From Acidimicrobiia bacterium (GTDB lineage Bacteria; Actinomycetota; Acidimicrobiia; Spongiisociales; ZC4RG35), in assembly GCA_041744795.1 (NCBI GenBank), contig JBGTKD010000192.1, forward strand, positions 13,628 to 77,627: a stretch of DNA of 64,000 nucleotides. The letters run 5' to 3'. The position numbers and the translations under genes are program-made. The notes below the pieces were generated by a model. It was not told the origin of the DNA. It made no database searches and saw only the letters and a list, made by a program, of their open reading frames with translations. How positions within the stretch are numbered: position 1 is the stretch's first letter; every line of letters begins with the position of its first letter. Below are positions 5,810 through 48,000 of this stretch, piece after piece.

Positions 5810-7252
5810 ATGTCTGATCTAGACCGCAAGGCCCGCGAAGAAGCCTTGGCGATGGCGCGCCGTGTGGCGCGCACACCGAGGGAGCTGGCTCGCTGGCTGC
5901 GACTGCTCGCCCGTCGCCAGCCGCGGGACGCCGAGGAGTACATCCAGGCAAACGCGGCGGAGTGGGCGACGGTCGCCGACACGAGTCCGGGCGATGCGGC
6001 CGACATCCTTGAGGCTCTCGGGGAGGAAGCCGCCGGCGAGCTCTTTGCGGGCCTCGATCCGGTTCAGGCTGCGGAGCTTCTCGAAGAGCTGCGCGATGAC
6101 CTGGCCGCGACTCTTCTGTCTGACCTGCCGCCCGCCGACGCAGTGCTGGTGCTCGAGGAGATGTCTCCCGATGACGCAGCGGACGTCATCGCTCATGTCG
6201 AAGACGAGGCCGCCGAACGGATGCTTGACGCGGCGGCGGATGAGTTCTCCGACGAAGTGCGCAGGCTGCTCGGCCACGACCCCGAGTCTGCCGGTGGTCT
6301 GATGACCACCGATATCGCCGCCCTTCCTTCCGGCTTGACTGTCGGCGAGGCGGTGGAGCGAATCCGCGTTCTTCACGAGGAGTACGAGGACCTGTCCTAT
6401 GTCTACGTCGTCGACGATGCCGACCGGTTGATCGGCGTCGTCTCGTTCCGGGATCTCGTCTTCCGACGCCCGGGAGATGGGATCGACGAGGCGATGGTGC
6501 GCGATCCGGTGGCAGTTCTGGAGTCAACGGACCGGGAAGAGGTCGCCGAGCTCGTTCAGCGATACCACCTCTTTGGCATCCCTGTTGTCGATGAGGAACG
6601 CAGACTTGTTGGCATGGTCACGACCGAGGCCGTCCTCGAGACGGTTCAGGAAGAAGCGCTCGAGGACTTCGCCATGGCGGTCGGTACTACGGCGGAGGAC
6701 TCGGTCTTCGTTCCGGTGCGCCAGTCAATCCGCTACCGCTTGCCGTGGATCGCCTTTGACCTGGTTGTGTCGTCGGTGGTCGTCCTCGCCATTTCCCGCT
6801 TCGACGACATCCTCGCCGCCTTCGTGGTGCTGGCTGCCTTGATGCCGCTCATTGCCCGCATCGGCGGCGATGCCGGTGCCCAGACGCTGGCCGTCGTGAT
6901 ACGCGGTCTCGCCACAGATGGGATAAGTGGATCCGACGTCAAGCGTGTGTTGGGACGCGAGGCTCTGATCGGAGTGGTCAACGGTGTCTTCATCGGCGTG
7001 CTCGCAGGAGTCCTGGGTTACTCACTCCAGGTCTTCCAGGGCGGTCCCAGTCCGTTCCGGATCGCGCTGGCAATGTTCATCGCCTCGTGGGCGAACCTCA
7101 TCCTCGCTGGCTTTGTGGGGGCGGCGGTCCCGCTGACCTTGCGTCGTCTCGGGTTCGACCCGGCCCTCGGCTCGAACCTATTCCTCACGACAGCAACCGA
7201 CCTCGTCGGCTTCGCCGGATTCCTGGCTGTCGCCTCGGCCCTTCTGTTATGA
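5810..7252 (+). CDS. mgtE: magnesium transporter MgtE
   Basis: N-terminal MgtE_N acidic helical domain, tandem CBS region, and a C-terminal TM domain with DAGAQTLAVVIRGLATDGI (Mg2+ pore motif). The likely start is ATG 5810 (MSDLDRK...). Confidence 0.85.
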   Translation: MSDLDRKAREEALAMARRVARTPRELARWLRLLARRQPRDAEEYIQANAAEWATVADTSPGDAADILEALGEEAAGELFAGLDPVQAAELLEELRDDLAATLLSDLPPADAVLVLEEMSPDDAADVIAHVEDEAAERMLDAAADEFSDEVRRLLGHDPESAGGLMTTDIAALPSGLTVGEAVERIRVLHEEYEDLSYVYVVDDADRLIGVVSFRDLVFRRPGDGIDEAMVRDPVAVLESTDREEVAELVQRYHLFGIPVVDEERRLVGMVTTEAVLETVQEEALEDFAMAVGTTAEDSVFVPVRQSIRYRLPWIAFDLVVSSVVVLAISRFDDILAAFVVLAALMPLIARIGGDAGAQTLAVVIRGLATDGISGSDVKRVLGREALIGVVNGVFIGVLAGVLGYSLQVFQGGPSPFRIALAMFIASWANLILAGFVGAAVPLTLRRLGFDPALGSNLFLTTATDLVGFAGFLAVASALLL

Positions 7253-7255
7253 CTC

Positions 7256-7732
7256 TCAGCCGGTGAAGGTTTTGACGTCCTTCACCGTGACCGTGAACTT
7301 CCCACCGGGTGCCTGATAGCTGACCTCGTCGCCGACTCCGGCACCCAGCAACGCCTTTCCCAACGGGCCGTCCGGTGATGCCAGCAGGACCCCTGGTTGC
7401 TTGTTCTCTGGTGAGGCCACAAAAAAGTCGTTCTCGTCGCCATCTGCGTCGACCAGGGTGACGACAGATCCCACGATGACCGTGTCTTTGGCCTCGACTG
7501 TGCGCACTTCGGCCTTGTCAAGGAGCGCCTGGACCTGGCGAATCCTGGCCTCCATCAGGCCCTGGTCGTTCTTGGCCGCGTCGTAGTCGGCGTTCTCGCG
7601 AAGGTCGCCGTGCTCTCGTGCGGTCTGGATGCGCTGTTCGATCTCGGCTCGTCCTGTCGTTAGGAGGTGTTCGAGTTCGTCCTGCAGTTTCTGGTGGGCT
7701 TCAGGTGTCAGGAATGTGGTGTCTTTGGTCAT
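7256..7732 (-). CDS. greA: transcription elongation factor GreA
   Basis: N-terminal coiled coil with acidic tip (LRENADYDAAKNDQG) and a C-terminal FKBP-like domain. Start MTKDTTFLTPEA at 7732. Confidence 0.9.
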   Translation of the reverse strand: MTKDTTFLTPEAHQKLQDELEHLLTTGRAEIEQRIQTAREHGDLRENADYDAAKNDQGLMEARIRQVQALLDKAEVRTVEAKDTVIVGSVVTLVDADGDENDFFVASPENKQPGVLLASPDGPLGKALLGAGVGDEVSYQAPGGKFTVTVKDVKTFTG

Positions 7733-13628: not shown

Positions 13629-13680
13629 CCCGTTTTTGGCGTATCAACGTCGCGAAAATGACCCGTTCTGCGGTAGAGAA
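13629..13680. repeat. copy A of a ~50-nt intergenic repeat family (TTTTTGGCG[T/C]ATCAACGTCGCGAAAATGAC[C/G]CGTTCTGCGGTAGAGAA)
   Basis: Near-identical to 27037-27090 and 27855-27908 (2-5 mismatches over ~50 nt). It sits in the convergent gap between the membrane protein stop and the PNP stop. Confidence 0.8.
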
Positions 13681-13689
13681 GCGGCCTGC

Positions 13690-17220: not shown

Positions 17221-18006
17221 TCAGTAGGGGGTGTCGCCGCCATCGACGTTGATTGCCTGACCGCGAATGACGACGGCGGCATCCGAGAGAAGAAACGCAA
17301 CGACCCGGCCCACTTCGATCGGCTGGACCTTGCGGCCGAGTTGGGCGGGACCCATTCCGGCTAAGAGTTCTTCAGAGGGGACGTTCAATCTCGGGGCCAG
17401 CCAATCGGCCACTCCGGCGAGCATCGGCGTATCGACCCCTCCTGGGCAAACGGCGTTGACGTTGATCCAGTCAGCGGCCCACTCCAGAGCGAGCGTACGC
17501 GTGAGGTTGATCACGGCAGCCTTGGAGGCGTTGTAAGCCGCCATGTTCTTGTAGCCGACCTTGCCGCAGTTCGAGGCCACGTTGACGATTGCTCCACCTC
17601 CGGATTCGCGCAGGTGGCGTCCCACTGCCTGGGCCATGACGAAGCTTCCTGTCACGTTGACCGCCAGCTCCCGGTCAAAGGCGTCGGCGGAGGAGTCCCA
17701 CGCCGCGTCAAGGGTCACAATTCCGGCGTTGTTCACGATCCCGTCCAGTCGGCCGAAGTGATCTATTGCCGCCCGGACGCAGGATTCAGCATCGTCGACG
17801 GACACGACGTTGCCTTCGACCGGCAGCGTCCTGTCTCCGTTCGGGTCGGTGCGCTCAGCCACAGCCTGGGCTGGCTTGAGGCGCAAATCGAAGAGGACGA
17901 CCCGCCCGCCCTGTTCGAGAATCGCCGCGGTCACTCCCTCGCCGATTCCCCCGCCAGCACCTGTCACGATGTAGGAACGGTCTTGCAGGTCCATCCGGGT
18001 TACCAC
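17221..18006 (-). CDS. SDR family oxidoreductase
   Basis: TGAGGGIGEG Rossmann motif, NNAG, and YNASKAA catalytic triad region. Confidence 0.8.
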   Translation of the reverse strand: MVTRMDLQDRSYIVTGAGGGIGEGVTAAILEQGGRVVLFDLRLKPAQAVAERTDPNGDRTLPVEGNVVSVDDAESCVRAAIDHFGRLDGIVNNAGIVTLDAAWDSSADAFDRELAVNVTGSFVMAQAVGRHLRESGGGAIVNVASNCGKVGYKNMAAYNASKAAVINLTRTLALEWAADWINVNAVCPGGVDTPMLAGVADWLAPRLNVPSEELLAGMGPAQLGRKVQPIEVGRVVAFLLSDAAVVIRGQAINVDGGDTPY

Positions 18007-23479: not shown

Positions 23480-25003
23480 ATGACAATCGAGCTGGAACTC
23501 CGCGGCGTCACCAAGCGGTTCCCCGGCGTCGTCGCCAACGACGCCGTAGACCTCACGGTGCGCGCCGGGGAGGTCCACGCCGTCGTTGGCGAGAACGGGG
23601 CAGGCAAGACCACACTGATGTCGATCCTTTACGGGTTGTTTCCCCCGGATGAGGGCGCGATCCTCATCCGGGGCGAACCCGTTAACTTCTCGTCTGCGCT
23701 CGATGCGATCAATGCCGGGCTAGGCATGGTCCACCAGGCGTTCAAGCTCTTCCCCACCCTCACAGTCGCAGAGAATGTGGTGTTCCGCTCCGAGCCGACC
23801 CGGAGAGGGATGATCGACAGGGCGGCCAGTGTGGCCCGAGTGCGGGAGTTGGCCGAGAGGTATGGACTGGCTGTGGACCCCATAGCCACAGTCGAGAGCC
23901 TCCCTGTCGGAGTGCTACAGCGGGTCGAGATCCTCAAAGCGCTCTACCGCGACGCCCAGATCTTGATCCTCGACGAACCGACCGCGGTCCTCACCCCTCA
24001 AGAGCGGGACATGCTCTTCGACATCATCCACCGACTCAAGGATTCGGGCCGCACGATCCTATTCATCACCCACAAGCTGGGTGAGGTGATGGCTGTCTCG
24101 GACCGAGTCACCGTCTTGCGTAACGGCCGGTCTGTCGCCGAGCTCGTTACCGACCAGACGACACCTGCGGAGATCACGCGTCACATGGTCGGTCGGGACC
24201 TCGACCTGACAAAGAGAGCGTTGCCTCATTCCGCTGGAGCTGTCGTTCTATCCGTTGAGGAGTTGGCCGCGATCGGTGAACACGATCGGGTGGTGGTCGA
24301 GGATGTGACCTTTGTCGTGCGTTCCGGCGAGATAGTCGGAGTGGCCGGTGTGGCGGGCAACGGTCAATCGGAGATGATCGAGGCTGTGACGGGTTTGCGG
24401 CCGGTTGAGAGTGGCTCTATCCATCTCGACGGTGTCGACATCACAGAGGCAGATGTGGCTTCGCGGCGGCGCCGGGGGCTGGCGTACATCCCCGAGGACC
24501 GTCATGGCGTGGGGACGACCCACCATGGGACAGTGTCAGAGAACCTTCTGCTCGGTCATCATCGCGAGGAAGGCATCGAGCGCCGAGGTTGGTTTGCTCT
24601 GGACGAAATCCAGCGCCGAGCCGAGAGCCTTATCGAACGTTTCGGGATAAAGACCCCCTCGGTGTCTACCCGGGTGTCGACGCTCTCCGGAGGAAACCTC
24701 CAGAAGCTCGTTGTCGCGAGGGAACTCGCCTACGACGCCCCGCTGTTGATCGCGGAACAGCCAACCCGCGGGGTCGACATCGGGGCGATCCAGTTCATCC
24801 ATCGCCAACTGCTCGACTACCGGGACGCGGGAGGGGCCGTTTTGATGGTTTCTGCCGAACTCTCCGAGATCCTGGCGCTCAGCACACGAATACTGGTCAT
24901 GTTCGAGGGCCGGATTGTCGCCGAACTCGACCCTGCTGCGGTCGACGAACCACAGATCGGCCGTTACATGACAGGATCGCACTTGGACGCCGCCCGTGCG
25001 TGA
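23480..25003 (+). CDS. ABC transporter ATP-binding protein with two nucleotide-binding domains
   Basis: Two Walker A motifs (GENGAGKTT; GVAGNGQSE) and two LSGG signatures; 507 aa. Confidence 0.9.
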   Translation: MTIELELRGVTKRFPGVVANDAVDLTVRAGEVHAVVGENGAGKTTLMSILYGLFPPDEGAILIRGEPVNFSSALDAINAGLGMVHQAFKLFPTLTVAENVVFRSEPTRRGMIDRAASVARVRELAERYGLAVDPIATVESLPVGVLQRVEILKALYRDAQILILDEPTAVLTPQERDMLFDIIHRLKDSGRTILFITHKLGEVMAVSDRVTVLRNGRSVAELVTDQTTPAEITRHMVGRDLDLTKRALPHSAGAVVLSVEELAAIGEHDRVVVEDVTFVVRSGEIVGVAGVAGNGQSEMIEAVTGLRPVESGSIHLDGVDITEADVASRRRRGLAYIPEDRHGVGTTHHGTVSENLLLGHHREEGIERRGWFALDEIQRRAESLIERFGIKTPSVSTRVSTLSGGNLQKLVVARELAYDAPLLIAEQPTRGVDIGAIQFIHRQLLDYRDAGGAVLMVSAELSEILALSTRILVMFEGRIVAELDPAAVDEPQIGRYMTGSHLDAARA

Positions 25004-27036: not shown

Positions 27037-27090
27037 CCCCGTTTTTTGGCGCATCAACGTCGCGAAAATGACGCGTTCTGCGGTAGAGAA
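27037..27090. repeat. copy B of the ~50-nt intergenic repeat family
   Basis: Best match to copy A. It lies in the convergent gap between the permease stop (27022) and the DDAH-like stop (27097). Confidence 0.8.
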
Positions 27091-27096
27091 CGCGTG

Positions 27097-27852
27097 TCAG
27101 GACCGGATTCGGACCGACAGACAGGTGACGCACCCTTCCAGTTTCTGGAACTCAGAGACGTCGACGGTTGCCACGTCGTACCCGCGGGCTTCGATCAGTG
27201 CCACCGACCCTGGACAGTCGTCGGCCATCAGTACTCGCCCGTCGCCAAGGTCTACGACAGCCGAACCAGACTCCTCGGGAACGCCGAGAAAGTTCTCGAA
27301 CATCGTTGGATTGTCGACGAGCGGCTCGTGTCCGATAACGGTGCCGTCCGGCAGGGCGGTAACCGCCGACTTCAAATGGAGGACCTTGGTCACCGGAACG
27401 GCCACCACGTTGCGGTCAGGGAGAAGGGCGGCGAGTTGATCGATCCCAGCCTGGTTGGTGCGATCTGACAAACCCACGTAGACGGTGGAACCGACTTTGA
27501 GCACGTCGCCTCCATCAAGTGTGGCTGGCGCGGCGATGTGGGCGACGCGACTGACGTGGCCGGCGATCGCCCGCTCTGCACCGTCGGTCTCGGGTCTGCG
27601 TTGCTCGGCTCCTGGCCGGGTGATGACCGCCAAGTCACCAAAGACGACAACGGCATCTTCGATGAAGACCGCATCAGGCCAGTCGTCGGAGGTCTCGACC
27701 TCCTCGACCCGCCACCCGGTGGTTCTGAGCACCTCGACATAACCGAGCCACTGCTCCACAGCCAGCGGGTAGTCGACCGCGCTTCGTTCGATATGAGTCA
27801 CCAACCCTTGAGTAAGCAACGGCCCCGGCCGTCGCACTAGCGCGATTGTCAT
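27097..27852 (-). CDS. dimethylarginine dimethylaminohydrolase / amidinotransferase-superfamily hydrolase
   Basis: 251 aa. The C-terminal catalytic Cys context LEGCVTCLSVR and the overall pentein-fold pattern indicate the DDAH family. Confidence 0.7.
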   Translation of the reverse strand: MTIALVRRPGPLLTQGLVTHIERSAVDYPLAVEQWLGYVEVLRTTGWRVEEVETSDDWPDAVFIEDAVVVFGDLAVITRPGAEQRRPETDGAERAIAGHVSRVAHIAAPATLDGGDVLKVGSTVYVGLSDRTNQAGIDQLAALLPDRNVVAVPVTKVLHLKSAVTALPDGTVIGHEPLVDNPTMFENFLGVPEESGSAVVDLGDGRVLMADDCPGSVALIEARGYDVATVDVSEFQKLEGCVTCLSVRIRS

Positions 27853-27854
27853 GA

Positions 27855-27908
27855 CCGCTTTTTAGCGCATCAACGTCGCAAGAATGACGCGTTCTGCGGT
27901 AGAGAAGT
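27855..27908. repeat. copy C of the ~50-nt intergenic repeat family
   Basis: The most divergent copy (TTTTTAGCGCATCAACGTCGCAAGAATGACGCGTTCTGCGGTAGAGAA). It abuts the DDAH-like start codon and precedes the BrnT-like gene. Confidence 0.75.
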
Positions 27909-40460: not shown

Positions 40461-42884
40461 GTGGCCGTGAATCTCGCCGACACCGGTCTTCCTGTAGAAG
40501 CCTCTGTGCTCGCAGTGCGCGCTGCATTGACTGACCCTGGCGCAGCGGTCCTCGTTGCTCCTCCAGGGTCGGGCAAGACGACCGTAGTTCCGTTGCGCCT
40601 GGTGGACGAGGCATGGCGGGAGGACCGCAAGATCGTCGTGTTGGAACCCCGGCGCCTGGCCACTCGGGCGGCGGCGCGGCGGATGGCGTGGCTATTGGGT
40701 GAAGACGTCGGCGAGACCGTCGGCTACGTAACCCGCACCGACCGCCAGACAGGCCCGGGGGTGGCGATCGAAGTGGTCACGGAGGGTGTCTTGACGCGCA
40801 GATTGCAGACCGACCCCGGGCTGATGGACACGTCGGCTGTGATCTTCGATGAGATCCACGAACGCAACCTGCAGACCGACCTAGGACTGGCCCTGGCACT
40901 CCACTCTCGCGGTCTGTTCCGGCCCGACCTCCGACTGCTCGCCATGTCCGCCACCGTCGACGCCGACCGGATCGCCCAGGTGATCGGTGGCCCGGTCATC
41001 ACTTCTGATGCTCGTACGTTCCCGGTCGATGTCCGATGGAAGCCCGCCCCTCGCAAGACTTGGATCGAGGATCACGCCGCCGCCGTCATTCGTCAGGCCC
41101 TGCGGACCGACCAAGGCGACGTCCTCTGCTTCCTCCCTGGCATGGCCCAGATCGACCGCGTGGCCCGCAACCTCGATGGGATAGACGCCGACGTCCACCG
41201 ACTGCACGGGAGCTTGCCGGTCGACGATCAGGACCGGGCTATTGCGCCAGGACCGAACCGGAAAGTGGTGCTGTCCACTGACATCGCAGAGTCGAGCCTC
41301 ACCGTCGAAGGGGTGGCGATAGTCATCGACTCAGGTCTGGCCAGATCGCCCCGATTCGATGCTCGCACCGGCATGACGCGACTCACCACAGTCGGCATCT
41401 CGAAGGCCTCGGCTGACCAGCGTGCGGGCAGGGCAGGACGCCTCGGACCCGGGGTCGCCTACCGGCTCTGGTCGAAGGTGGAACACGCCGCACGTCGCCC
41501 TGACATCGAACCGGAGATCCTGTCGGTGGAACTGGCAGGGTTCATGCTCGACCTGATCCATTTCGGAGCCGACGACCCCTCGGCACTGGTATGGCTCGAC
41601 CCGCCCCCCGAACGGGCAGTGGCCGAGGCCGTGGACCTACTGGTATCGCTGGGAGCGATCGACTCGGAGCGTCGTTTGAGTGCCACAGGCAAGGCGATGG
41701 CTCGCCTGCCCCTTCATCCGCGGCTGGCACGGATGGTGGCCGATGCCGGGGTTGACGCTTGGACGGCGTGTTTGGTGGCGGCGCTAGTCGACGACCGGGA
41801 TGTATTTGGGGGACCGCTGGATGACCGACCGGTTGATCTGGCGTTGCGGGTGCGAGCGGTGATTGATGGTGACCGGAGAGCGGACCGACGGGGAACCGAT
41901 CGGGTTCTACGCACCGCCCGGGACCTGGCAAGCCGAGTGAGGATCTCAGAGGACCGAGTTCGCGCCGATCGGGTCGGGCCTCTATTGGCGTTGGCCTTTC
42001 CCGACAGGCTGGCGATCCGCCGAGGCAGCCCCGGCCGCTTCCAACTGCGGCTGGGTGCGACCGCCTGGGTGCCGAACACCGACCCCCTGGCTCCTGAGCC
42101 GTTCCTGGTGGCGGCTGACCTGGATGGCAAGCGCAAGGACGCCCGCATCCGCCTGGCTGCGGCTATCGACCCTGAAGAGGTGGTTTTTGCTTTCGCCAAC
42201 GACATCGACGAGCGAACCGAACTCGTATGGGACGGCGACCGCATCGTGGAGCGGAGCGAACGAAAACTGGGTGGCATCGTCCTGGAATCCTTCGAGCGTC
42301 GTGCCCGACCCGACGACCGAACACGGGCAATGGTTCTCGACCGGATCCGGTCCGACCCGAGAGTGCTCGCCTGGTCAGGTGCTGCAGGCTCGTTCATCGA
42401 CCGGGTGGCGTTCCTGCACCTCTCCGAGCCTGACCGCTGGCCCGCCTGGAGCAGCGAAGGATTGGCAGTCGGTGTCGACGAGTGGATGGCGGTGTGGATC
42501 ACGGGCGCAGTGAGCCTTGACGAGGTTCGTTCGGTGGACTTGCTGGCGGCGTTGCGGGCCCACCTTGGTCACGACCTAGCTTCCCGGATGGACCGGGAGG
42601 CACCGACGAAGGTAACGCTTCCTTCGGGCCGACAGGCGAAGGTCGACTACTCGGGGGACCGGCCATCGGTCGCTGCCCGGGTTCAGGACTTCTACGGCTC
42701 GACCGTCACCCCGCAGGTGGGTGGACAACCTCTCGTGTTGGAACTGCTCTCACCCGCCAACCGCCCCGTCCAGATCACCGATGACCTTGCCGGGTTTTGG
42801 AAGGGGAGCTGGTCAGAGGTGAGGAAAGACATGGCCGGTCGATATCCTAAGCACGACTGGCCGGAAGACCCCGGATCTATTTGA
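40461..42884 (+). CDS. hrpB: ATP-dependent RNA helicase HrpB (DEAH-box)
   Basis: GSGKTT Walker A, DEIHER DEAH box, helicase C domain, and a C-terminal HrpB-specific domain ending RYPKHDWPEDPGSI; 807 aa. Confidence 0.9.
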   Translation: MAVNLADTGLPVEASVLAVRAALTDPGAAVLVAPPGSGKTTVVPLRLVDEAWREDRKIVVLEPRRLATRAAARRMAWLLGEDVGETVGYVTRTDRQTGPGVAIEVVTEGVLTRRLQTDPGLMDTSAVIFDEIHERNLQTDLGLALALHSRGLFRPDLRLLAMSATVDADRIAQVIGGPVITSDARTFPVDVRWKPAPRKTWIEDHAAAVIRQALRTDQGDVLCFLPGMAQIDRVARNLDGIDADVHRLHGSLPVDDQDRAIAPGPNRKVVLSTDIAESSLTVEGVAIVIDSGLARSPRFDARTGMTRLTTVGISKASADQRAGRAGRLGPGVAYRLWSKVEHAARRPDIEPEILSVELAGFMLDLIHFGADDPSALVWLDPPPERAVAEAVDLLVSLGAIDSERRLSATGKAMARLPLHPRLARMVADAGVDAWTACLVAALVDDRDVFGGPLDDRPVDLALRVRAVIDGDRRADRRGTDRVLRTARDLASRVRISEDRVRADRVGPLLALAFPDRLAIRRGSPGRFQLRLGATAWVPNTDPLAPEPFLVAADLDGKRKDARIRLAAAIDPEEVVFAFANDIDERTELVWDGDRIVERSERKLGGIVLESFERRARPDDRTRAMVLDRIRSDPRVLAWSGAAGSFIDRVAFLHLSEPDRWPAWSSEGLAVGVDEWMAVWITGAVSLDEVRSVDLLAALRAHLGHDLASRMDREAPTKVTLPSGRQAKVDYSGDRPSVAARVQDFYGSTVTPQVGGQPLVLELLSPANRPVQITDDLAGFWKGSWSEVRKDMAGRYPKHDWPEDPGSI

Positions 42885-42929
42885 GCGCTTCGAGGGCCGG
42901 TACGAGCCGTTCTGTCGATTCAAGGCTCC

Positions 42930-43283
42930 TCAAGCCGCCTCCGGTGGAGTCTTGCGGATCGGAAAGGATGCAGCGATGACGGCCAGAACTCCGACTCCGA
43001 TGATCAGGCCCGGGATTACGAGACTCGTCCCCTCGGTCCGCCTCTGCTCGATATACGCAGTAGCTTCTTCTTCGGTCCCTTCGAACGCGACAGTGAGTCG
43101 ATCCTCCGGGTTGGGGGCTTGCTCGTCGACCTCGAAGACCCGGTGGACCGTGCCGTCGCTCTCCACTGAAAAGTTCAAACCCGACCCATATTCCGACTCC
43201 AAACTCCAGGCTCCCAGACCCACCAACACCGCTAGGCCGCCTAACACGCCAACCGCGATGCGGCTCGCCCTCGACAACTTCAC
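42930..43283 (-). CDS. small two-TM membrane protein (117 aa)
   Basis: N- and C-terminal hydrophobic helices flank an acidic soluble segment. It sits between hrpB and a duplicated hrpB 3' fragment. Confidence 0.35.
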   Translation of the reverse strand: MKLSRASRIAVGVLGGLAVLVGLGAWSLESEYGSGLNFSVESDGTVHRVFEVDEQAPNPEDRLTVAFEGTEEEATAYIEQRRTEGTSLVIPGLIIGVGVLAVIAASFPIRKTPPEAA

Positions 43284-43441
43284 ATAGCTCCTTCGTCTAG
43301 TGATGAAACACTACGACTCAGCGCCGGCACTTGAACTCCACACGGTCTCCCAGCTCGACTGGTCGGAGGGTTTCAACTCGATGCGTCGATCTCACGATGG
43401 GCGCTGAGCGTGAGGCGGATTGCTCGGGGCTTGCTGTCCTC

Positions 43442-43495
43442 ATGGCCGCCCGGTACCCGAAACATGACTGGCCGGAAGACCCGGGTGCTATTTGA
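43442..43495 (+). pseudogene. relic/duplicate of the hrpB 3' end (encodes MAARYPKHDWPEDPGAI*)
   Basis: An 18-codon stretch 558 bp downstream of the hrpB stop repeats the last 17 hrpB codons with only synonymous/conservative changes (cgatatcctaagcac vs cggtacccgaaacat), then TGA. Confidence 0.5.
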
Positions 43496-43577
43496 GCTCG
43501 CCCCTCTACTTAGAAACAACCGTCTGTCACCCACCGTGCTTAGCCGTTCGTCTTCTAAGTAACTATCAGGAGCTTGG

Positions 43578-44129
43578 ATGTTGCAGCAATTGTGGAAGCT
43601 TGCAGATTGGCAATGGGTGGCTGGGCGGTTTCTCGTGGCCGGAGGTGCCTTGTATGCCTTTTTTTGGGGCTCGTTTCTGGTCGGCAACTTCGGGGATGAC
43701 CTTTGGTTAATCGGGCTGGCGGTTCATGGAGTGCTGATCTTTCTGATCATCGCTGGCCTGGTTGCGGCGCGGTCGCGGTTACGACTGGAAGGCTGGGCAT
43801 CGTGGGTGTGGAACACGTCAATCGCATTCGCCTTCTTGGGCCAAACCGTCGGCCACCCGATGTGGTCGCTCGCTCTATTTGGCTTGGCCGGCGTGGGGTT
43901 CACCAAGTTGGGGTCAGCCGTGGCTGCATCGTTGGCCGCTGGTGGGTTGGGTTGGCTCGCTCTGTTTTGGAGCGGGGTCCGAGTAGGAGACCAAGACGGC
44001 CCCACCCCGACGGACGGTCAGGTGGTGCTCGGCCTGATCGCGCTAATGCTCACGGCACTTGGACTCATAGGTCTCGGTGTCAGGCTTCGGCGGGCGGTTA
44101 CCTCGGCTGACTTGATGCTCCAGCCTTAG
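43578..44129 (+). CDS. hypothetical polytopic membrane protein
   Basis: 183 aa, ~5 TM helices, AGGAG RBS. It is preceded by an unusually AT-rich 80-nt stretch. Confidence 0.5.
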   Translation: MLQQLWKLADWQWVAGRFLVAGGALYAFFWGSFLVGNFGDDLWLIGLAVHGVLIFLIIAGLVAARSRLRLEGWASWVWNTSIAFAFLGQTVGHPMWSLALFGLAGVGFTKLGSAVAASLAAGGLGWLALFWSGVRVGDQDGPTPTDGQVVLGLIALMLTALGLIGLGVRLRRAVTSADLMLQP

Positions 44130-44228
44130 AAGGGGGGCTCGGATTCATGGATGCCGGCATCTCCCAACGGTTCCGGGACCTCGGCGGGTAGAACGGGCCG
44201 GGAGCGAGGGTCACGTATCGTGCAGGCG

Positions 44229-45026
44229 ATGGCCGAGGCGTACTTCACAACCGACGACGGGGTGTGGTTTCACGGAACCGGTTACACCAGGGGCCCATGG
44301 GATCTGAACTCCTGTCATGCCGGCCCGCCCACCGGGCTGATGGTTCGAGCTTTGGAGCGACTGGTCTCGGACAAGGCACTGACCCGGATGTCGATCGAGA
44401 TCTCCCGGCCAATTCCGATGGGCGGCTTTCGGATCGAAACTGAACTGCGTAAGCAGGGCAGGGCGGTGACGCTCAGCACCGCTCGCATCGTCGATGACGA
44501 GCGGACCTATGCGGAGTGTTCGGCGATGCATCTGCGGGAAATCGACCTTCCCGCCAAGAGCGCACCGTTCGAGCTTCCTGACTTCGAGGCGTCGGTCCCC
44601 GGACCGCACCCAATCACCGAGACTCTGCACGGCGACCAGGCGTTTCCCTCTTCGATAGAAGTGCGATACGACCCGTCAGCGTCGATCGGCGTCGGCGGGT
44701 ACACGGTCATCTGGATGCGAAATCTGGTTCCCCTTCTCGAATCCGAAGAACCGTCGGGTCTCCAGCGCATCTGTCCGCTGGCAGATAGCGGGAATGGCAA
44801 CTCCTACAACGAGTACCTGGACAGGGTGCTATTCGTGAACCCCGATTTACTCTTGTCGATCCACCGCCAACCGGAGGGTGAGTGGTTCGGCGCCAAGACC
44901 GTTTCGCACTGGGGGGACAACGGCATTGGCTGCTCAGATGCAGAGTTGTTCGACTCGAAGGGTCCGGTTGGCCGAGCGACACAGAACCTGTTGCTCGACC
45001 CTGCACCGGATCGCATCGACCCTTAG
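44229..45026 (+). CDS. thioesterase-like (double hotdog, TesB-like) family protein
   Basis: ATG 44229 (MAEAYFTTDDGVWFHGTGYTRGPWD...), ~265 aa. The pattern resembles acyl-CoA thioesterase-like superfamily members. Low-specificity call. Confidence 0.45.
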   Translation: MAEAYFTTDDGVWFHGTGYTRGPWDLNSCHAGPPTGLMVRALERLVSDKALTRMSIEISRPIPMGGFRIETELRKQGRAVTLSTARIVDDERTYAECSAMHLREIDLPAKSAPFELPDFEASVPGPHPITETLHGDQAFPSSIEVRYDPSASIGVGGYTVIWMRNLVPLLESEEPSGLQRICPLADSGNGNSYNEYLDRVLFVNPDLLLSIHRQPEGEWFGAKTVSHWGDNGIGCSDAELFDSKGPVGRATQNLLLDPAPDRIDP

Positions 45027-45029
45027 CTG

Positions 45030-48000
45030 TTGGATCGAAGCGGGACCGTTTGTGTGATCGCCTCCCCGCGCTCGCCGGGTGAGGAGTACATTTCGTCGGG
45101 ACTGGAGGGTTCTCTGTTGGAGTGTCCGAATTGTGGTCATGGGAACACCCGTGATGCCAAGTTCTGTGCGCAATGCGGGACGGGGTTGACAGTCGCGTGC
45201 GGTGTCTGTTCGGCCGTTGGCGATCCGGGGGCGGCTTTCTGTACGAACTGCGGGGCGGCTTTCGGCGCCCCTGCCAGCGGTGAGAATGAGCTCGCCCGGT
45301 ATCTGCCGCAGGAACTGCTGACCAAGCTCGAATCCGCTAGAGCGGGCAGGGCGATGCAGGGGGAGCGGCGCACTGTCACGATGCTGTTCGCCGACATCAA
45401 GGGTTCGACCGCCGCCGCCGAAAAGCTCGATCCAGAAGATTGGGCCGAGATAGTCAACGGTGCTTTCGAACACCTGATCGCGCCGGTTTATCACTACGAG
45501 GGCACCCTCGCCCGCCTCCAGGGCGACGCAGTCCTGGCCTTTTTCGGTGCGCCCATCGCCCACGAGGACGACCCTGTGCGGGCGCTGCGCGCCGGGCTTG
45601 AGATCATCGAGGCGATCGGCGACTACCGCCACCAGATCGAGAGCCGTTGGGGAGTATCGATCGAAGCTCGAGTGGGGATCCACACCGGTCTCGTGGTCGT
45701 CGGTGAAGTGGGCTCCGACCTACGGGTCGAATACACCGCTCTGGGGGACGCGATCAACGTCGCAGCCCGGATGGAGCAAGCCGCCGAACCAGGAACGGTT
45801 TTCGTGACCGACCACACACGGTCCCTCACTGGCGGGGCATTCGAGTTCGAATCGTTAGGCCCGGTCGAAGTGAAAGGAAAGGCCGAGCCGGTCATTGCCC
45901 ACCGGGTGCTCCGGTTTATCGGCGATCACGACACCGCCTCTCCGACGGCTCTCATCGGGAGATCGAACGAGATGGAACGCCTCGAAGCTCTGCGTGCCCA
46001 GCTCGTAGCTGGCTCCGGATGGGTCGCATCGATCACCGCAGATGCGGGCGTGGGCAAGTCCCGTCTGCTGCGCGAGTTCCGAGACTCGACCGAAGCCGCC
46101 GCGATACTCTCGGTGCGCTACGACCAGCCCGGCGAAGTGGCATGGATGACCGGCGCCGGCCGCTCGTACGAGACAGCCACGCCGTTCGCTGCCGTCAGCG
46201 ACCTTCTGAACCGGTGGTGGGGCCTTGTCGATGCAGATGAGCCTTTCGAACGTGTCGAGTCTGCGATCGCTTCGATCGAATGTACCTATCCCGACGGCGC
46301 CGCCCTGCTCTCCCACATCGGCGGCGTCGCCCTCTCAGGCGATGCGGCGGCTTTCGTGGCTGCGCTCGAGGCTCCGGTCCTTCACAGCAAGGCCGCAGTG
46401 GCTTTTACGTCGTACCTTGAGGCCTCTGCCCGGAGACGCCCCGTGCTGATCGTGCTCGAAGATGTCCACTGGGCCGACGACCTGTCCCTGGCCCTCTTCG
46501 AGTCGATTATGGAGTTAACCGAACGCCTCCCCATCGGTCTCATCGTGGCGATGCGGCCATACAGGGAAGACACCTCGTGGCACATTCACCAGGTGGCCGA
46601 ACGCGACCACCCCCACAGGTATCACCAGTTGGCGCTGTCCCCACTGACCACCGACGATGGTGGCGCACTCCTCGATTCGCTGCTCGCTGAAACCGAGATA
46701 CCGGCCGAGACGAGGCAACGGATTCTCGACCGTTCCGCTGGCAACCCCCTGTTCCTCGAAGAGATGGTGAGGACGCTCAGCGAATCCGGATCGGCTACGG
46801 TGCCGACCTCGCTCGCCACCATCCTCACGGCCCGTCTCGACCGCCTCGACGAGTCCACCCGTTACGTCGTGCAGATGGCCTCGGTGATTGGATCCGAATT
46901 CGATCGGGCCACACTGGCTGCCCTGCTCGATCGGGACACGCCCGACCGGGAGATCATCGACCTGCAGCGCCGGGGCATTGTCGTGGACGCCGGACGGGGA
47001 ATGCTTGCGTTCCGGCACGTTCTGATGCAGGAGGCGGCTTACGAGACGATCCTCCGTCGGACTCGGAGAGAACTGCACCGAATGATCGCCGATCACTACG
47101 TGACGGAACGGCCGGAAGAGGTGCAGGGCATCTCCCGCCATCTCACCGAGGCGGGTGACATCGAAGCGGCGTTCCCATACCTTGTCGAGGCGGGCGTCAG
47201 AGCAACCCGGGCGATGGCCCTTGGAGATGCGATCCGACTTCTCACCGAAGCGATAGACAACACGCCAATTGGAGCAGACCCGGCGGTCATCGTGCGTGCC
47301 CACGACACGCTGGGGGCCGCGCATTCCCTAGTGCCGGATCTGTCCAAGGCGGCGGCGGTGTATCAAAGCTTGTACGACTACGGCGAAAGGACGTCCGAAC
47401 CTGCGGCTCGGGTAGCGGCGCTCAACCGGCTGGCCTTCGCCACTGCGTCGCTCAGCGGCAACTTCCAAGACGCGACCGACTACCTCGCTCAGGCCCGGGA
47501 ACTGGCAGAGGAGTCGGGGGACGACGTCGGCCTTGCCGAATATCACATGAACTCGTGTTTCGTGGCCGCCATGAGCGGTGACCTTCGCGGGGCCGTGAGG
47601 CATGACGAAAGCACTGTCGAGGCAGGCGAACGTGCTGGTGCGCCAGGGATCCGCCTCGAGGGGATGATGCGCCGTGCCGTTAACTACGCCGCCCTGCTCG
47701 AACTCGAACAGGCCGAAGCGGCCATCGAATCGGCGCTCGATGCGGCCAAGGACGCAGGGGCTCAAGAAGAGCAGGCCATCATCGAGTCCTTCGCATTGGG
47801 TGTCGTCCGGTATTGGCGGGGGGACCTGCGGGCGGCACTCGACCTGATCGAACGAAACCATGACTCACTCAGTCGCTACGGCTCGTTCTACGAGTCGATC
47901 AATCGGGTGAGGGCAGGGGAGGTCTTCTTCGATCTTGGCGAACCGGAAACCGCCTTGAGTCGTTTTGCCGGTGCACGGCGCGTGGGAGAACAAAACGGGC

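Follow-up and report, generated by a model that had tools for sequence, protein, structure and literature searches.

An orphan hrpB terminus downstream of a small inserted gene in an Acidimicrobiia genome: a possible recombination scar between two haplotypes

Why is the end of a conserved helicase gene encoded twice, and how did a small membrane-protein gene come to lie between the two copies? The question is raised by a stretch of 64,000 nucleotides (nt) of contig JBGTKD010000192.1 (assembly GCA_041744795.1), hereafter the window, which has a guanine-plus-cytosine (GC) content of 63% and comes from a metagenome-assembled genome (MAG) of an Acidimicrobiia bacterium. The helicase gene is hrpB, the repeated part is its last 17 codons, and the gene between the copies is referred to here as orf117. 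An earlier reading of the letters alone (the original prediction) proposed either an integrative element that had inserted into hrpB and then decayed, or an ancient junction of two hrpB paralogues. In the present study, we compared the locus with related loci. We conclude with moderate confidence that it is a recombination scar, in which two haplotypes of the variable gap between hrpB and a downstream thioesterase gene were joined by homologous and illegitimate recombination. The features of the locus are as follows (ORF, open reading frame; TM, transmembrane).

40461–42884, plus strand: hrpB, a full-length DEAH-box helicase gene of 807 codons for amino acids (aa), identified by its ORF and Pfam matches
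42830–42886, plus strand: copy 1 of a 57-nt repeat, the functional hrpB terminus with the last 17 hrpB codons, encoding MAGRYPKHDWPEDPGSI and a stop
42887–42910, no strand assigned: flank after the hrpB stop, which resembles an ancestral-type hrpB 3' flank and lies outside the conserved orf117 module
42911–43366, minus strand: orf117 module, with the gene at 42930–43283, approximately 80 nt of conserved upstream sequence including GAAGGAG, and approximately 18 nt past the stop
43367–43440, no strand assigned: junction DNA, the 74 nt between the orf117 module and copy 2
43441–43497, plus strand: copy 2 of the 57-nt repeat, a displaced orphan hrpB terminus encoding MAARYPKHDWPEDPGAI and a stop
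43498–43577, plus strand: spacer and 5' region of orf183, native, with AGGAG six nt before the ATG, an AT-rich patch, and an inverted repeat
43578–44129, plus strand: orf183, a lineage-restricted ORF with multiple TM segments, the original downstream neighbor of hrpB in the arrangement of the related locus L167
44229–45026, plus strand: acyl-CoA thioesterase gene (Pfam 4HBT_3 and 4HBT_3C), the conserved right border of the variable gap

HrpB matched the Pfam families DEAD, Helicase_C, HA2_N, and HrpB_C, and the HrpB_C profile was covered over its whole length (1–133 of 133) by residues 675–804. Since this match reaches residue 804, the last 17 hrpB codons belong to the conserved domain. The second set of these codons occupies 43442–43495. 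Together the copies form an imperfect direct repeat of 57 nt, which is 82% identical, encloses an insert of 554 base pairs (bp), and includes a 17-bp core, GACTGGCCGGAAGACCC, that is identical in both. It is one of only three repeat families detected when the 64 kb were compared with themselves (E=7e-9; E=3.8e-12 if the comparison is limited to the two 1.5-kb flanks). The copies differ at 10 of 54 coding nt; third codon positions account for eight of these differences, more than expected under a uniform spread (P=0.0034). By the Nei-Gojobori method, differences affect 8 of 11 synonymous sites, compared with 2 of 40 non-synonymous sites (Fisher 1e-5). The re-encoding of the hrpB tail with mostly synonymous changes, on which the original prediction was built, was thus confirmed. 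The GC content at third codon positions is 0.53 in copy 1 and 0.74 in the whole of hrpB; a value as low as that of copy 1 was found in only 4.5% of 17-codon hrpB windows.

Copy 2 lies in frame in an ORF of 32 or 54 aa. A blastx search of 42885–43577 against three HrpB proteins matched only the 17 codons of copy 2, and no ribosome-binding site was seen by eye upstream of either possible start. Copy 2 is thus an orphan tail, and the short ORF is unlikely to be a gene, as had been supposed from the outset. Matches of 13 nt to hrpB loci at 43350–43368 were considered as additional hrpB sequence and rejected as a single chance match to a conserved motif.

We gathered 160 hrpB loci by similarity from genome and metagenome contigs, and further loci through orf117 and orf183 homologues; all loci are designated here by L numbers. 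Exact-sequence look-ups with the window HrpB and orf117 gave no match, and a word-indexed search with the C-terminal part of HrpB missed the closest relatives (best match, 78%). The loci closest to the window all belong to Acidimicrobiia MAGs, and the window HrpB protein is 88% identical to that of L167, 83% to that of L001, and 79% to that of L002. Among these relatives, only L167 lies at a synonymous divergence (dS) below 1, and the sampling of close relatives is thin.

L167, a 3.3-kb contig from SRR22508344 that carries a homologue of orf183, is the closest syntenic relative found, and its site is empty. The 57 nt occur once, orf117 is absent, and hrpB is followed directly by orf183 and then by the thioesterase gene. 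Positions 1–806 of L167 align to window 42081–42886, ending with hrpB, and positions 750–2339 align to 43441–45027, which comprises copy 2, the spacer, orf183, and the thioesterase gene. Copy 1 is accordingly continuous leftward with the first of these segments and copy 2 rightward with the second, and the single 57-nt stretch of L167 matches both. Relative to this empty site, the window has gained 554 bp (42887–43440) and a second 57-nt copy. The 3' end of hrpB carries an insertion polymorphism; the comparison of related genomes proposed with the original prediction found the segment 42885–43441 missing in L167. A second copy of the terminus was absent in 159 of the 160 hrpB loci fetched; the exception, L050, is an unrelated duplication that is described below. 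A third copy of the hrpB end after orf183 was not found in the window, L167, L001, L002, or L081, which gives no indication of tandem accretion at an attachment (att) site.

The gap between hrpB and the thioesterase gene holds unlike content in every relative examined.

L002: about 250 bp, no gene
L081: a methyltransferase
L001: three genes over 3.6 kb
L083: about 3 kb
L167: orf183 only

Just beyond the gap, L167 has an extra Polyketide_cyc2 (SRPBCC) gene on the minus strand (2339–2860), between the thioesterase gene and the cyclase/AAA-ATPase gene. It is missing at window 45027–45048 and represents another indel polymorphism bordering the hotspot. We also considered whether L167 is itself a deletion product of recombination between copy 1 and copy 2. 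This idea was rejected because the L167 terminus is no simple chimera of the two and because orf117 and copy 2 are also missing from L001, L002, and L081.

The divergence of the two copies indicates how they arose. Under an in-place duplication of the 57 bp with neutral drift of copy 2 thereafter, approximately 6.5 of the 10 differences (two thirds) would be expected to be non-synonymous, whereas two were seen (P=0.005). The proportion of synonymous differences (pS) between the copies is 0.73, which exceeds the hrpB-wide pS of 0.39 between the window and L167 (P=0.026). An in-place duplication would postdate the split between the window and L167, and the higher synonymous divergence of the copies counts against it. 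Private changes, polarized by hand against L167 and the outgroups, are about equally frequent in both copies; a neutral copy 2 would predict approximately four times more (roughly P=0.03, binomial by hand). The L167 terminus differs from copy 2 by six synonymous and two non-synonymous changes, and at the diagnostic sites it sides with copy 1 at four, with copy 2 at four, and with neither at two.

Copy 1, copy 2, and the L167 terminus all end in PG[AS][IT] and a stop, followed by GC, and the termini of L001, L002, and L081 do not. The ending common to these three termini points to a partner lineage that was a close relative, and the coding-constrained divergence argues that each terminus served as a functional hrpB end while the two evolved in separate lineages. 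The results obtained suggest that the copies are the ends of two hrpB alleles or orthologues from closely related lineages, which would have diverged while functional and been joined later. The junction of two paralogues offered as an alternative in the original prediction comes close to this, since two versions of the gene meet at the locus. However, the versions, which share this ending, would be alleles or orthologues and not paralogues.

Divergence from L167 also varies along the locus. In hrpB and the thioesterase gene the pS is 0.39 and 0.31, respectively; copy 2 has a higher value (0.54), and orf183 has a value of 0.125, significantly below those of both flanks. This mosaic suggests repeated recombination in the gap. 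The gene orf183 (L167 891–1442; dN/dS, the ratio of non-synonymous to synonymous divergence, 0.5) appears to have been exchanged between the window and L167 lineages after the core genes split. Copy 2 did not arrive with this low-divergence block, because its own pS relative to L167 is much higher (P=0.001). A search for mosaicism along hrpB against L001, L002, and L081 was uninformative because synonymous sites are saturated (dS 1.1–1.3).

The DNA on both sides of the copies bears on the origin of each. From copy 2 through the spacer to orf183, the window is collinear with L167, in which the hrpB end takes the place of copy 2, and the displaced 3' fragment has thus kept its former neighbor. 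After copy 1, the 9-mer GAGGGCCGG also occurs in the hrpB 3' flanks of L002 and L085, 8–14 nt past the stop in each; such sharing was equaled by only 0.4% of shuffled or random 30-mers (P about 0.004). Copy 1 and its flank (24–30 nt) therefore look like ordinary chromosomal hrpB context. The 74 nt at 43367–43440 had no BLAST similarity to any fetched locus or to the rest of the window, and blastx detected no hrpB there.

The original prediction had placed a two-TM ORF of 117 aa on the opposite strand in the 557-nt interval, and orf117 was found there at 42930–43283 with a GTG start. Its AlphaFold model (predicted local distance difference test score, 82) consists of a TM helix, three strands, a helix, and a second TM helix. 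No match was found in Pfam, NCBIfam, PHROGs, or PADLOC, or among folds in the PDB. The gene has 27 protein homologues (53–100% identity), a dN/dS of 0.25–0.5, and a conserved upstream region, and by these measures it is a real gene. The DNA similarity of nine other loci to the window is limited to the orf117 module (78–87%), and the DNA common to them amounts to approximately 340–510 bp, equivalent to window 42911–43366. The module occurs in at least eight other unrelated contexts with entirely different neighbors and never beside hrpB. The decayed larger element that had been proposed is not visible in the insert, which is a stand-alone gene module of approximately 450 bp that also occurs in these other contexts without flanking repeats. 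Between the window and L168, a different context, the dS of orf117 is 0.20, whereas the core genes of the window and L167 differ by 0.56 (hrpB) and 0.39 (thioesterase gene). The module therefore moves between contexts or genomes. We conclude that orf117 is a conserved itinerant single-gene module and that, judging from these divergences, it changes genomic context faster than core genes diverge.

Several observations concern how orf117 might move. The copies in the window and L161–L173 differ from one another by a dS of 0.16–0.76, and those in L168, L169, and L173 lie near an IS3 or IS110 transposase or a TrwC fragment. The module has no recognizable mobility signature of its own. In the nine other loci, blastn and tblastx comparisons of the flanks detected no direct repeats below E=0.02; terminal inverted repeats were not consistent between the window and four other orf117 loci, and sharp common ends of the module were not found across the other loci. 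Apparent synteny among the orf117 contexts was rejected because the neighboring cyclases are just 31% identical to that of the window and hence not orthologous. A phage origin was also rejected, because orf117 had no relative in IMG/VR and no copy on a viral contig. Pfam searches detected no integrase, recombinase, or transposase in the insert or in the 22 genes of window 28–58 kb, about 15 kb on each side; the integrase or recombinase remnants that the original prediction suggested looking for are thus absent from this range. The insert does not have the marks of a transposable element either: terminal inverted repeats and a transposase are lacking, and the repeat is 57 nt long and 18% diverged.

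We propose the following course of events. Haplotype A would have consisted of hrpB with the copy 1 terminus, a short ancestral-type flank, and the convergent orf117 module. Haplotype B would have consisted of hrpB with the copy 2 terminus, orf183, and the thioesterase gene, an order still present in L167. A homologous crossover on one side, within hrpB or on the thioesterase side, would have been combined with an illegitimate joint (43440/43441) situated 17 codons short of the hrpB end in haplotype B. The outcome would be an intact hrpB ending in copy 1, an acquired orf117, and a copy 2 pushed back and still attached to orf183. Such a displacement needs no recombinase, and it explains why copy 2 remains joined to orf183 and why both copies look like working ends. 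The native-looking flank after copy 1 also fits a chromosomal haplotype A better than DNA borne by an element. We infer both the one-sided mechanism and the existence of haplotype A.

A similar arrangement has been described in Rhs loci, in CDI (contact-dependent growth inhibition) loci, and in type VI secretion system (T6SS) loci, in which displaced 3' fragments keep a piece of the conserved region, a process called C-terminal displacement (PMC5361080). The same paper attributes these fragments to homology-facilitated illegitimate recombination (de Vries & Wackernagel 2002 and Prudhomme et al. 2002, as cited there). In those loci, as proposed here, the arriving DNA has the conserved upstream part of a gene in common with the locus and supplies a 3' end and an adjacent gene of its own, and the old 3' end is pushed downstream with a short piece of conserved coding sequence along with its old neighbor. 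A recombinase gene is lacking in both cases, and the locus varies among strains. However, the gene affected here is a housekeeping helicase with a conserved tail and not a polymorphic toxin with a variable tail. Moreover, orf117 is convergent, and no functional link to hrpB was seen; only 17 codons were displaced. The window records a single event and not an array, and no parental haplotype was recovered.

Chromosomal hotspots of horizontal transfer were reportedly described by Oliveira and colleagues in 2017. The present locus resembles such core-gene hotspots in its conserved hrpB and thioesterase flanks, its accessory content, which is unlike in every relative, and its mosaic divergence. 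However, an ordinary double homologous crossover leaves no duplicated gene end, and the scar records an extra illegitimate joint.

Some results weigh against joined haplotypes. The parental haplotype A, with hrpB followed by orf117 and without copy 2, was absent from the orf117 contexts examined and from the 160 hrpB loci, among which close relatives are thinly sampled. Compared with L167, the window shows a clean insertion and duplication with nothing lost, and the repeat has an identical 17-bp core in its middle; this geometry and core are equally expected from att-type or Campbell-type integration. Neither copy is clearly nearer to L167 (eight differences each), and donor and recipient are thus not assignable. 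Only 17 codons with 10 differences underlie all of the tests on the repeat, which are mutually consistent and suggestive, but not overwhelming. The junction is carried by only one assembly.

The foremost alternative is therefore an att-type (Campbell) integration, in which a small circle carrying orf117 and a 57-bp attP-like fragment of the hrpB terminus would have entered the 3' end of hrpB. Integration would have been carried out either in trans by a recombinase or by RecA at the short homology, leaving copy 1 as attL and copy 2 as attR. The integrated unit would be either a non-autonomous cassette resembling a cis-mobilizable element (CIME) or the last remnant of a larger integrative element. 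CIMEs are integrase-less derivatives of integrative elements, as in Streptococcus thermophilus. Many features match: the 3' end of the target gene lies in direct repeats around the insert, the proximal repeat exactly rebuilds the conserved HrpB_C terminus, the empty site has a single copy, and an identical core is set between diverged arms. The coding-constrained divergence of the copies is expected of a gene fragment borne on attP, and the low dS of orf117 relative to L168 indicates a mobile gene. Integrative genetic elements typically restore the coding sequence of their target by a fragment carried on attP, with hrpB among the targets reported from other bacteria (PMC7192596).

However, the insert of 554 bp has one small gene and no integrase, none was detected within about 15 kb, and a cognate autonomous element was not found in the 64 kb of the genome that the analysis covered. 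In the other loci examined, the orf117 module has other neighbors and lacks att-like direct repeats, terminal inverted repeats, sharp ends, and an adjacent hrpB; the same target or att site does not recur, and the gene is not on viral contigs. The DNA to the right of copy 1 resembles a native hrpB flank, and a comparison of the arms with L167 for a chimeric pattern (left native, right foreign) revealed none. The attL/attR-like insertion advanced in the original prediction is partly supported, by the empty site, the complete HrpB_C restored by the proximal copy, and the divergence of the copies mostly under coding constraint, but not by a recombinase, which is lacking in window 28–58 kb. We regard att-type integration as an unlikely but substantial alternative. 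Its strongest form is very improbable, namely, that orf117 is the cargo of an integrase-less cassette that is mobilized in trans and inserts at the 3' ends of conserved genes by way of an att-like site re-encoding their last codons, with the copies as live attL and attR and the gap as a dedicated landing pad.

The region downstream of copy 2 had also been drawn into the insertion. An unusually AT-rich segment was noted there, and 43496–43577 is indeed 52% GC, which places it among the lowest 1.4% of 82-nt windows. The reported 8-bp inverted repeat, ACTTAGAA/TTCTAAGT, also exists (43508–43515 and 43553–43560). However, 2% of shuffles and 5.5% of real 82-nt tiles contain an inverted repeat of at least 8 bp, and conservation of the present one does not extend to L167. 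The AT-rich patch itself is present in the empty-site L167 as the upstream region of orf183, with three mismatches over 43517–43577. The patch and the inverted repeat are therefore unrelated to the insertion. Rfam, promoter, and terminator scans of 42700–43800 detected nothing meaningful. The gene orf183 has only three homologues among 5.8 billion proteins, the L167 homologue being 87% identical, and had no match in Pfam, NCBIfam, PHROGs, or PADLOC.

A duplication in place is improbable. In this explanation, orf117 DNA would have been caught at a staggered break or during a replication template switch, 57 bp of the target would have been duplicated, and copy 2 would have decayed as non-coding DNA. 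An insert with a direct target duplication is the sole change relative to L167, and mobility genes are not required. However, the three tests described above, namely, the lack of a non-synonymous excess in copy 2, the similar numbers of private changes, and the synonymous divergence of the copies in excess of that between the window and L167, all argue against it.

An assembly chimera, in which the metagenome assembler joined the strain haplotypes hrpB–orf117 and hrpB–orf183, is highly improbable. The source is a metagenome assembly, and the exact orf117 and orf183 proteins each occur only on a single 83-kb contig. However, the copies are identical over no more than 17 consecutive bp, below the usual assembly k-mers, and a join there makes no duplication; the 43440/43441 joint has no repeat able to mislead an assembler, and both flanks are collinear with L167. 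Lastly, it is barely credible that copy 2 is functional, as a translated mini-protein mimicking the HrpB tail or a maintained landing pad for recombination: its frame and stop are intact despite substantial synonymous divergence, but a ribosome-binding site (by eye) and a promoter-like site (by scan) are lacking, the upstream part of the 32- or 54-aa ORF matches nothing, and the terminus is duplicated in only one of the 160 hrpB loci, L050.

L050 (6754–7824; Acetobacteraceae MAG OZ240665.1) contains an independent duplicated hrpB end, with the second copy approximately 0.8 kb downstream, around a single inserted gene. The repeat is about 240 nt long, is 89–98% identical, and comprises the last 27 hrpB codons and palindromes resembling repetitive extragenic palindromic (REP) sequences, including perfect inverted repeats of 30 nt. 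It flanks a gene for a 177-aa Y1 transposase resembling REP-associated tyrosine transposases (RAYT) at 6996–7529 (Pfam Y1_Tnp, E=6e-4, below the gathering cutoff). In contrast to the window, the second hrpB end in L050 has mostly non-synonymous changes, whereas 42887–43440 in the window is without REP sequences or a RAYT gene.

We noted other features in the window. A motif of approximately 52 nt, CCGTTTTTGGCGYATCAACGTCGCGAAAATGACSCGTTCTGCGGTAGAGAA, occurs in three copies that are 90–94% identical (13629–13681, 27038–27090, and 27855–27907). Two of these flank a minus-strand ORF at 27097–27852, and the motif matched no Rfam family; a role as a repeated regulatory element, or as a small RNA, is conceivable. 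A 61-nt imperfect palindrome at 23532–23592 is 84% self-complementary (self-BLAST). ARAGORN detected a tRNA-Ser (CGA) at 17785–17860; an Rfam scan of the whole window at the gathering threshold gave no match, the tRNA family included.

The scar belongs to a known kind, and neither a new system nor a new mechanism emerges from it. As a clean and datable case, the locus shows accessory genes building up between the core genes of uncultured Acidimicrobiia in the absence of visible mobile-element machinery. The orphan tail of 17 codons would record the splicing of two diverged haplotypes while selection kept hrpB intact. For studies on gene flux in this clade, the present results point to the hotspot between hrpB and the thioesterase gene and to orf117, a small membrane-protein gene that hops between contexts.

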